Of a stretch of 44,592 nt of DNA, positions 24,568 through 25,638 are shown piece by piece; position 1 is the stretch's first letter; each line of letters begins with the position of its first letter. Source of the DNA: Escherichia phage PSK8. The position numbers and the translations under genes are program-made. The DNA lies in the sequence record PP541515.1; one strand, given 5' to 3'. The notes under the pieces were generated by a model, which had not been told where the DNA came from, did not search any database, and saw only the letters and a list, made by a program, of their open reading frames with translations.

Positions 24568-24596
24568 TTGACACAGGCAATCAACAGGTATACATT
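24568..24596 (+). promoter_or_regulatory. Host sigma70-type early promoter (TTGACA-17-TACATT)
   Basis: Perfect -35, 17-nt spacer, TACATT -10; same architecture recurs at 25469. Confidence 0.5.
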
Positions 24597-24974
24597 AGCA
24601 ATCACTGAGACGGACTAGCAAGCTGCCTCAGGTTATAAGCAGGAGAATTGATGCGTAAGCCATAGCTAGTGGATGTAGTCGCATGAAGGCTTGAGTAAGG
24701 GGCCGTTTAATACCTTCTTCCTCTGGAGACAAAGCTTATAACAAGGTCGCTGTTCGGCTTCCACGGCAGCAGTTCTGGAGGGAACTACATCCCAACAAGG
24801 AGTTAACCACTCCGCACTAGTGCCACCGTGGTGGATAACATGATGTGCAACGGTTGCCTGCTGAGGGGCTATAGCTCACGAGTTAGGTTAACAGGCTAAC
24901 ACCGCTCTTTAACAATTTGCTTAGTGTAACCTATGTATGCCGTGGTTAGTTACTTATTGAATGAGGAATTAACT

Positions 24975-25070
24975 ATGAATTACGATGCAATGTATGAAGC
25001 CTACTTCGACTCCTTAGAAGAAGGAGAAGAAGCATTATCCTATGCTGAATTCGTGGAGGCTTTATCATGA
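24975..25070 (+). CDS. Small acidic early ORF (31 aa)
   Basis: GAGGAA RBS; ATGA overlap with next ORF. Confidence 0.35.
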   Translation: MNYDAMYEAYFDSLEEGEEALSYAEFVEALS

Positions 25071-25249
25071 TTCTGAATAATCGTGAACTATCCGTTCTCT
25101 TCACCTTGTTATGCTACATGATTCGTAACAACGAATTACTTACAGATGATGAGTTGGCCTTGTATCACCGCTTTCTTAACGAAGGTTGGACCGATACAGT
25201 TAACCAGAAACGTGACTTGATGAAGGAGTTAAGCAATGTATCAGCATGA
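25067..25249 (+). CDS. Hypothetical early protein (60 aa)
   Basis: GGAGG RBS; translationally coupled chain of early ORFs. Confidence 0.5.
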   Translation: MILNNRELSVLFTLLCYMIRNNELLTDDELALYHRFLNEGWTDTVNQKRDLMKELSNVSA

Positions 25250-25460
25250 GGTTTTCTTCGAATCAGCTAAAGAAGCTATTCGCTTGCATGATGATATGAA
25301 GTTAGCAGACATGGATGTTGGCTTGACCAGCTTCCTGCTGGATTACAACATGGAATATCACCGCGTTACCTTGGTATCGGAGTATGACCATCAAACGATT
25401 ACCGAGTACTTAGGTAGCGAAGATTATGATTACGACCAAGTAATCACAACAAATCTCTAA
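25236..25460 (+). CDS. Hypothetical early protein (74 aa, acidic)
   Basis: AAGGAG RBS. Confidence 0.55.
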   Translation: MYQHEVFFESAKEAIRLHDDMKLADMDVGLTSFLLDYNMEYHRVTLVSEYDHQTITEYLGSEDYDYDQVITTNL

Positions 25461-25468
25461 ATTAACTA

Positions 25469-25497
25469 TTGACAGCCACGGCATACAAGGTTACATT
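25469..25497 (+). promoter_or_regulatory. Host sigma70-type early promoter (TTGACA-17-TACATT), second copy
   Basis: Same -35, spacer length and -10 as the 24568 promoter. Confidence 0.5.
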
Positions 25498-25638
25498 AAG
25501 CATCAAGACGGAGACGTCTCAAAACATCCACCGCTCTTTAACAATCTGGATAGTAGCTTCTTAGTCGGATAGGTTAAATCTAGGGCATTCTTTTGAGTGC
25601 CCTATAATGTAACCTAACTAACTAATGAGGATTAAATC

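Follow-up and report, generated by a model that had tools for sequence, protein, structure and literature searches.

Consensus boxA elements and structured leader RNAs in the early region of Escherichia phage PSK8

Two host-type promoters in the early region of Escherichia phage PSK8 (sequence record PP541515.1) are each followed, in an untranslated leader, by one copy of the 17-mer CACCGCTCTTTAACAAT. We analysed the whole 44,592-nt stretch of this record, hereafter called the window. Judged by its sequence, the 17-mer has as its core a consensus boxA, CGCTCTTTAACAA, and the best explanation for its presence, to which we assign a probability of roughly 0.8, is that it would mediate Nus-factor antitermination of early transcription by the host RNA polymerase. 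A first-pass annotation of the window had described the repeat as a regulatory or processing element. The regulatory assignment and the location in untranslated leaders stand, whereas a role as a processing or RNase III site does not fit a sequence that is predicted to be single-stranded; the boxA identity replaces that vague label with a specific mechanism, the recruitment of host Nus factors for antitermination. In addition, comparative analysis indicates that the 300-nt leader between the first promoter (P1) and the first boxA (boxA1) is not spacer. It is made up of two independently conserved folded RNA modules, which we term LE1 and LE2.

Early promoters and boxA elements

The elements that carry the principal finding are as follows.

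24568-24596, + strand: early host-type promoter P1 (-35 TTGACA at 24568-24573, 17-bp spacer, -10 TACATT at 24591-24596)
25469-25497, + strand: early host-type promoter P2 (TTGACA, 17-bp spacer, TACATT; exact pattern match)
24900-24916, + strand: first copy of the 17-mer, with the boxA1 core CGCTCTTTAACAA at 24903-24915, 3 nt past the 3′ hairpin of LE2
25529-25545, + strand: second copy of the 17-mer, with the boxA2 core CGCTCTTTAACAA at 25532-25544, predicted to be unpaired
25506-25519, + strand: small hairpin AGACG-GAGA-CGUCU between P2 and boxA2 (weak fold, z = -1.3)

The pattern TTGACA-N17-TACATT occurs exactly twice in the window, both times on the + strand, which bears out the earlier description of two promoters of the same architecture at 24568 and 25469. 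By our own estimate, about 0.005 exact matches to a pattern with 12 specified bases would be expected on both strands, and even the relaxed form TTGACA-N17-TAnnnT matches P1 and P2 only, on either strand. P1 received the top score in a promoter scan (10/12) and is conserved in phages K1E and SP6 and in contig L121; P2 is conserved in K1E, and its SP6 counterpart has the -35 element TTGACT. Both are, on sequence, very good sigma-70 promoters at the left end of the genome and are oriented toward the early genes, as is characteristic of the sigma-70 early promoters of the T7 supergroup. The likeness to the T7 A promoters that had been suggested for them also holds, in that they are sigma-70 sites that, within an SP6/K1E-like genome, occupy the left-end location held by the A promoters in T7. 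We infer that transcription starts near 24603-24604 from P1 and near 25504 from P2.

Two further sequences were observed in the vicinity of P1. A perfect palindrome of the CRP type, TGTGA-N6-TCACA, lies at 24523-24538, is the sole copy in the window (0.07 expected) and is found at the same place in K1E, SP6 and contig L121. Centre to centre, it lies about 40 bp upstream of the P1 -35 element. This puts it at approximately -72/-73 relative to the inferred start, a spacing like that of class I sites, and P1 might be coupled through this site to host cyclic AMP-CRP. The heptamer CTTAGTG is clustered at 23682-24920, with 8 of its 13 + strand copies located around the genome left end and upstream of P1. 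One copy is at 24920, 4 nt past boxA1, and a similar YTAGTG trails several boxA copies in relatives.

The 17-mer is present in exactly two copies in the window, and no further copy is found when up to three mismatches are allowed (0.11 expected); only 1 of 100 shuffles reached two copies at three mismatches. The first-pass annotation had placed the two copies at 24899-24915 and 25538-25554, positions that are wrong by 1 and 9 nt, respectively. The motif TGTAACCTA, which had been reported to follow each 17-mer, is likewise restricted to two + strand copies in the window, 24925-24933 and 25608-25616, each of them between a 17-mer and the next start codon. The promoters, the 17-mer and TGTAACCTA are real and far beyond chance, and the small coordinate errors of the 17-mer are the sole fault in their description.

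The boxA consensus of γ-Proteobacteria, GYTCTTTAANA (PMC5725501), is perfectly matched at only two positions in the whole window on either strand, 24904 and 25533, both on the + strand. The γ-proteobacterial boxA in its rrn form is UGCUCUUUAACAA, the E. coli rrnH leader reads CAACTGCTCTTTAACAATTTATCAG, and the 12-mer GCTCTTTAACAA within the 17-mer core is identical in the E. coli rrnH leader and in T7. boxA1 begins approximately 300 nt past the inferred P1 start and boxA2 approximately 30 nt past the inferred P2 start, with the next start codons 58 and 93 nt downstream of the two elements, respectively. Both reside outside the open reading frames (ORFs) predicted as genes; a mechanically called ORF of 31 aa with a TTG start (25469-25564) spans boxA2. 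In structure predictions boxA2 is unpaired in the minimum-energy and centroid folds, and boxA1 is mostly unpaired in the centroid fold. Hairpins precede both copies. That at 24882-24900 is strongly conserved; that at 25506-25519 is weak, and although its stem is kept in K1E with a GCGA loop, it is absent in SP6 and is therefore of doubtful significance. No clear boxC follows the boxA copies, and a weak GT-rich sequence resembling TAGTGT is seen after several of them. In rrn operons both boxB and boxC are dispensable accessories.

Comparison of leaders among related phages, which the first-pass annotation had recommended, reveals that a core of 12-13 nt is conserved, with boxA at homologous positions in K1E, SP6, T7, T3, phiYeO3-12 and dozens of contigs. 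In T7 the 12-mer GCTCTTTAACAA is at 813-824, between promoter A3 (750) and gene 0.3 (925). K1E carries it three times and has a fourth copy with one extra T before ocr, and SP6 carries it twice in addition to a degenerate version, GATCTTTAACAA, after the SP6 P2 promoter. The CACC prefix of the 17-mer is not conserved, as K1E has CATT, TCCC and CCTA instead; because conservation is limited to the core, the identity over the full 17 nt within PSK8 is partly incidental. When IMG/VR was scanned with GCTCTTTAACAATNTG, more than 120 loci were obtained, among them T7-like contigs in which the motif lies approximately 700-850 nt inside the left end, SP6-like contigs that have it several times, and further contigs that look lambdoid (not classified). 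The element is mentioned in reviews of the T7 group, and it may already be noted in the genome papers for SP6 and K1-5. The boxA of T7 is described as an antitermination element in the passage of PMC3709561 that cites Savalia 2010, according to which its mutation, like down-mutations of A3, makes the host-polymerase inhibitor Gp2 dispensable.

There is one boxA per early cassette in K1E, several of them with a GC-rich hairpin in front. These hairpins have the form GCYGGC-ACTA-GCCRGC followed by CTATCAAGGCAC and were observed at 1930-1960 and 2205-2225 in K1E (L002) and at about 885-905 in SP6 (L004). They follow early cassettes and precede the next boxA by 15-20 nt; the PSK8 window is without such a cassette.

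Antitermination by boxA and Nus factors is well established (PMC2800207, PMC3177189, PMC4807359, PMC7665894), and complexes of this type protect long untranslated RNAs from Rho (PMC7665894). From this known behaviour of boxA we infer how Nus factors would act at the PSK8 elements. Host polymerase starting at P1 and P2 would transcribe rightward through several small ORFs, an ocr-like gene and the gene for the phage RNA polymerase. The single-stranded boxA on the nascent RNA would be bound by host NusB-NusE (S10), which together with NusA, NusG and probably SuhB and S4 would convert the polymerase to a processive, Rho-resistant form, as on rRNA operons. Read-through of the untranslated P1 leader (about 370 nt) and of the early region (5 kb) would in this way be secured at a time when no phage protein has yet been made. 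Because the boxA complex needs no phage protein, such a mechanism would suit the first minutes of infection.

Two structured RNAs in the P1 leader

The leader modules occupy the following positions.

24600-24742, + strand: LE1, structured leader RNA that starts at the inferred P1 start; supported by covariation
24743-24900, + strand: LE2, structured leader RNA present as an insertion relative to K1E; supported by covariation

The predicted helices of LE1 comprise 24605-24608/24628-24631, a long-range pairing of 24632-24640 with 24734-24742, 24641-24647/24715-24722, and inner hairpins. Its sequence is 95-99% identical within Vectrevirus. Identity falls to 76-79% in the SP6-like phages that infect Klebsiella, Proteus and Salmonella, and phages of Erwinia and Pantoea match it only in part. 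By this measure LE1 is common to the SP6-like phages (Molineuxvirinae) of Escherichia, Citrobacter, Klebsiella, Proteus and Salmonella. In an alignment of nine sequences (A5), 12 of the 32 predicted pairs show compensatory changes and 98.2% of cells are paired, compared with 34.5-55.1% in slid controls; none of 500 shuffles reached the observed value. LE1 holds no + strand ORF of at least 25 aa. A smaller one, ATG CGT AAG CCA TAG after AGGAG, was considered and discarded, as it is not conserved in relatives.

A separate observation was made in three SP6-like phages of Klebsiella and Proteus (L251-L253). At about 450-680, LE1 and boxA are separated in them by roughly 230 nt of extra noncoding sequence that is conserved in all three and may be a third leader RNA module. 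The same stretch is present in L256, where the fetched sequence holds no boxA.

LE2 folds into six hairpins (24749-24770, 24780-24793, 24799-24813, 24820-24841, 24853-24872 and 24882-24900), the last of which, at the 3′ end, has the conserved loop GGUUAACAGGC. All six are well supported; the stem closing the multiloop is uncertain because two predictions for it differ. In two alignments 15 (A2) and 18 (A4) distinct sequences were compared. Compensatory changes were found in A2 for 18 of 40 pairs, with 98.8% of cells paired against 33-51% after sliding, and the 92 double-change cells compare with 27.9 in shuffles, none of 500 shuffles reaching the observed value. G-U pairs are frequent, which favours the + strand.

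The distribution of LE2 is sporadic. No other Vectrevirus record compared, that of K1E included, contains it, and yet unannotated noncoding stretches in the leaders of 68 Autographiviridae records match it at 70-76% identity. These records are from Kayfunavirus, Przondovirus, Berlinvirus, Teetrevirus (phiYeO3-12), Drulisvirus and one unclassified Erwinia phage. The module keeps about 75% identity across three subfamilies between which the RNA polymerases are only about 30% identical. This sporadic spread across subfamilies suggests that LE2 is an accessory module. A covariance model of LE2 (R1) scores 147 bits for the copy in the window and 176 bits for that in phiYeO3-12, and it detects no copy in T7, T3, SP6 or K1E, even when the filters are switched off, or in other boxA-bearing contigs. 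BLAST against 5,426 E. coli genomes gave no match to LE2, and a metagenome scan for the LE2 core gave 105 matches, only 4 of which were true copies by nhmmer. Five matches to the core in bacterial genome contigs from unrelated taxa were taken as chance, as none fits the LE2 profile. Positions 24860-24873 of LE2 read GGGGCTATAGCTCA, which is the same as the 5′-terminal 14 nt of E. coli tRNA-Ala. A tRNA within LE2 was nonetheless rejected; ARAGORN finds none, and within LE2 the bases of GGGGCTATAGCTCA are paired to GCCC upstream of them rather than forming an acceptor stem.

In Przondovirus and phiYeO3-12, LE2 starts about 6-10 nt past a sigma-70 -10 element, and in Drulisvirus about 25 nt past it, so that in three lineages the module lies at most about 25 nt from the inferred transcript start; in Kayfunavirus and PSK8 it is located deeper inside the leader. 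boxA follows directly after LE2 in PSK8, contig L186 and phages of the PRF-SP2 type. The two elements are separable, because Drulisvirus copies of LE2 occur without a consensus boxA within 400 nt. In phiYeO3-12, LE2 stands in place of the interval from A2 to A3 of T3, and the right junction falls in the A3 -35 element, which is the loop of the last LE2 hairpin. When phiYeO3-12 (L133) is compared with T3 (L257) over 628-835, the promoter annotated as A3 (628-656) is seen to be the promoter in front of LE2, and the homologue of the T7/T3 A3 promoter is TTGACA(805)-N17-TAAGAT, with its -35 element in the last LE2 hairpin loop.

No Rfam family (Rfam 15) was matched by LE1 or LE2, whether in the window region (E ≤ 10) or at ten homologous loci (E ≤ 5). 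One unrelated human long noncoding RNA family that overlaps LE1 was discarded as a chance-level match (14.4 bits against a gathering score of 38, E = 6.8). The fold of the whole 373-nt leader has z = -0.13, so that single-sequence energy would miss both modules; only comparative analysis revealed them. A scan of the leader for C>G composition indicated no obvious Rho-loading (rut-like) region and is uninformative, and literature searches found no descriptions of the LE1 and LE2 leader RNAs. We consider it reasonably probable, with less confidence than for boxA, that the P1 leader, which is the first RNA made on infection, comprises two uncatalogued structured RNA families that act in cis or in trans, LE2 being mobile. 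As cis elements they could shield the leader against Rho or aid assembly of the boxA antitermination complex. Alternatively, they could act in trans against host defences or against the host itself, a role that we consider because LE2, with its accessory distribution, adjoins anti-restriction genes.

Alternative readings and the early operon

Several points weigh against antitermination through boxA. The literature searched yielded no transcript, Nus-binding or Rho data for SP6-like phages or for PSK8. boxA1 is at the 3′ end of a long leader, and the leader itself would thus not be protectable by boxA1. We know of no case in which complexes of the rrn type override strong intrinsic terminators. 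Among the relatives, the SP6 P2 copy GATCTTTAACAA and the K1E ocr-leader copy with its extra T deviate from consensus, so that not every copy need function, and the Drulisvirus copies of LE2 do without a nearby consensus boxA. Finally, a boxA near a start codon can repress, as in suhB (PMC5725501).

This last point leads to the alternative that survives best, although we regard it as improbable: boxA would act negatively in PSK8, with Nus factors lowering translation and promoting Rho termination to throttle the early genes, as at E. coli suhB. That gene is repressed via BoxA and Nus factors regulate in opposite directions according to context (PMC5725501), and boxA1 and boxA2 do lie upstream of start codons, by 58 and 93 nt. 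However, a boxA of the suhB type is within about 50 nt of the start codon; the PSK8 copies are further away, and ocr is also behind a large hairpin. Moreover, the homologous T7 element is the one described, in the passage cited above, as acting in antitermination, and a phage would have no obvious gain from attenuating its anti-restriction and RNA polymerase genes.

Improbable too, and in our view a little less likely still, is the proposal that the repeated motif is kept mainly as a recombination linker for early-gene cassettes and has no role at the RNA level. The window corresponds to K1E minus the segment between the second and fourth boxA of K1E, joining the upstream flank of K1E P2/boxA2 to the downstream flank of the fourth K1E boxA. 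The insertion of LE2 ends exactly at boxA1, the same junction is present in the Przondovirus-like contig L186, and the extra K1E genes 2.5 and 2.8 likewise have their end points at boxA copies. In phiYeO3-12 as compared with T3, the other junction of the LE2 replacement is in conserved -35 sequence. From these alignments it appears that LE2 is inserted at promoter or boxA junctions, and because cassette junctions fall at boxA copies, boxA also marks recombination end points. Against a linker as the sole reason for conservation, the motif shares 12 nt of identity with a host protein-binding site, is always on the transcribed strand downstream of promoters, and is described as functional in T7, in that same passage. 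Recombination at conserved motifs is an expected by-product, and linkage is plausible as an addition to antitermination rather than instead of it.

Very unlikely is the idea that the 17-mer is itself an RNA processing site, for RNase III or RNase E, that parts the leader from the message. T7-group early RNAs are processed by RNase III, and the annotations of T3 and phiYeO3-12 place a site of the R0.3 type a short way 3′ of the boxA motif. However, RNase III requires double-stranded RNA and the 17-mer is predicted to be single-stranded in both contexts, and its conserved core equals the consensus of boxA, a motif to which protein binds in single-stranded form. As the core is boxA, the 17-mer is not an RNase III site. 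The annotated R0.3 stem-loop of T3 and phiYeO3-12 is separate from boxA and is found at the same relative position as the following PSK8 structure, its counterpart.

25562-25624, + strand: hairpin in two tiers around an internal loop, the lower stem formed by UAGGUUA/UAACCUA and flanking bases and the upper by CUAGGGCAUUC/GAGUGCCCUA

This hairpin has a predicted free energy of -29.2 kcal/mol (z = -4.9), and the same two-tier fold is formed in SP6 and contig L007 (z = -4.0 each). Relatives carry compensatory changes in the upper stem (GGGCA/UGCCC, GGAGG/CCUCC and GGAGA/UCUCC), all three variants of which keep the pairing; automatic alignment of the most divergent members is poor. The T7 R0.3 fold has the same two-helix layout, and on the strength of these structural models the PSK8 hairpin is a candidate RNase III site, the positional analogue of R0.3 in T7 and T3. 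The second copy of TGTAACCTA (25608) sits in its 3′ arm. The first (24925) is in no conserved hairpin and looks like a vestige of the ocr-leader module, because CTTAGTGTAACCTA is found as well in the 3′ arm region of the ocr leader of contig L008. A pairing of TAGGTTA (24884) with TAACCTA (24927) around boxA1 was rejected, as the upstream arm is missing from K1E and the fold does not reach significance.

The notion that the 17-mer matches are chance AT-rich words in intergenic DNA has only the short length of the motif in its favour and can be dismissed, given that 0.11 copies are expected with three mismatches and the position is kept in K1E, SP6, T7 and dozens of contigs.

The early region of the window shares about 91% identity with its left-end counterparts in K1E and further Vectrevirus phages, and by this similarity the window is a circularly permuted SP6/K1E-like podophage genome of Vectrevirus (Molineuxvirinae, SP6 group). 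SP6 coordinate 380 corresponds to about 24377 of the window, which puts the physical left end near 24000. The early operon comprises the following elements.

24917-24974, + strand: 5′ untranslated region of the first small ORF, holding CTTAGTGTAACCTA at 24920-24933 and the Shine-Dalgarno sequence GAGGA
24975-25070, + strand: small early ORF of 31 aa (from the ORF list, as are the next two)
25067-25249, + strand: small early ORF of 60 aa
25236-25460, + strand: small early ORF of 74 aa
25639-26013, + strand: ocr-like anti-restriction gene (phrog_2568, E = 1.8e-50; annotated as ocr-like in K1E and relatives)
27157-29784, + strand: phage single-subunit RNA polymerase gene (from the ORF list; 85% identical to SP6 RNA polymerase by tblastn)
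29792-29815, + strand: intrinsic-terminator-like hairpin of 10 pairs followed by TTCTTT, directly 3′ of the RNA polymerase gene

The three small ORFs match PHROG families of unknown function (phrog_2061, phrog_9275 and phrog_6403). The first has GAGGA in front of it and is homologous to SP6 gp2 and phrog_2061; the K1E RefSeq record is without annotation of this 31-aa ORF, the first annotated gene there being the one that follows. The untranslated region 24917-24974 is kept ahead of the homologous ORF in K1E, SP6 and several contigs, and its fold is not significant (z = +1.1). The ocr-like gene is the first served by P2 and boxA2. An ORF of 294 aa separates it from the RNA polymerase gene, which is the last early gene read by host RNA polymerase. 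The early operon probably ends at 29792-29815, and a terminator after the RNA polymerase gene has been reported for SP6 and UAB_Phi78 (PMC4837284). Just 3′ of this hairpin, the 16-nt palindrome GTCTCACATGTGAGAC is found in two identical copies about 190 bp apart (29857-29872 and 30050-30065).

Comparison with known systems

SP6-like phages have one boxA per early cassette where T7 has a single copy, and the copies double as cassette boundaries. In addition, the first transcribed sequences in this long-studied group of phages are conserved folded RNAs that show strong covariation and belong to no Rfam family, and one of them moves between subfamilies. Should LE1 and LE2 counter host defences, or modulate RNA polymerase, Rho or the Nus factors, an RNA layer would be added to the earliest stage of host takeover, and the two modules would be useful parts for engineering phage early expression.

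As folded RNAs past an early promoter, LE1 and LE2 resemble HK022 put and the Rho-antagonising element of mgtCBR, an analogy of position only. They are larger (143 nt for LE1 and 157 nt for LE2) and have several helices, and LE2 differs further in its sporadic occurrence, like that of an accessory module. Of these comparators, put is mentioned in PMC7665894. The boxA elements of CRISPR arrays and suhB (Stringer 2020, PMC7665894; Baniulyte 2017, PMC5725501) have the same consensus as those of PSK8, also outside rRNA operons, and control Rho action on poorly translated RNA. Those are host genes, however, whereas in PSK8 multiple copies are found in the operon of a virulent phage.

The nut sites of lambda offer the analogy of a boxA of the NusB/NusE-recruiting type in a phage early leader. 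No N-like protein is possible at the start of PSK8 infection, the order of hairpin and boxA in PSK8 is rrn-like, and its boxA is of the full rrn type, unlike the weaker boxA of lambda. The weaker lambda-type boxA is CGCUCUUA.

The likeness to the boxB-boxA-boxC arrangement of E. coli rRNA operons is closer. The boxA is the same save for the base before the 12-mer (T in rrnH, C in PSK8), and boxA1, like the rrnH boxA, has a hairpin (boxB in rrnH) ending 3-4 nt ahead of it. By analogy, boxA is in both cases repeated along an operon, the rrn boxA recurring in leader and spacer, and would act on untranslated RNA without a phage protein. PSK8 differs in having no boxC that can be recognised; boxA is followed by nothing more than a weak GT-rich TAGTGT. 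What precedes boxA1 is not a simple boxB but a hairpin belonging to a conserved RNA of 157 nt, and the RNA downstream is translated mRNA.

The early region of T7 provides the nearest match. Promoter, boxA, hairpin and ocr in PSK8 correspond to A3, boxA, R0.3 and gene 0.3 in T7, and in both phages the same 12-mer GCTCTTTAACAA is followed by TCTGG, an irregular two-tier hairpin, ACUAA with a Shine-Dalgarno sequence, and the ocr gene. T7 differs in having three clustered promoters and one boxA, whereas PSK8 has two promoters about 900 bp apart with a boxA each and its relatives carry three or four copies, one per early cassette; T7 also lacks LE1 and LE2. The promoter-boxA-hairpin-ocr layout of PSK8 belongs to the early control design of the T7 group, in which boxA is an already known element.

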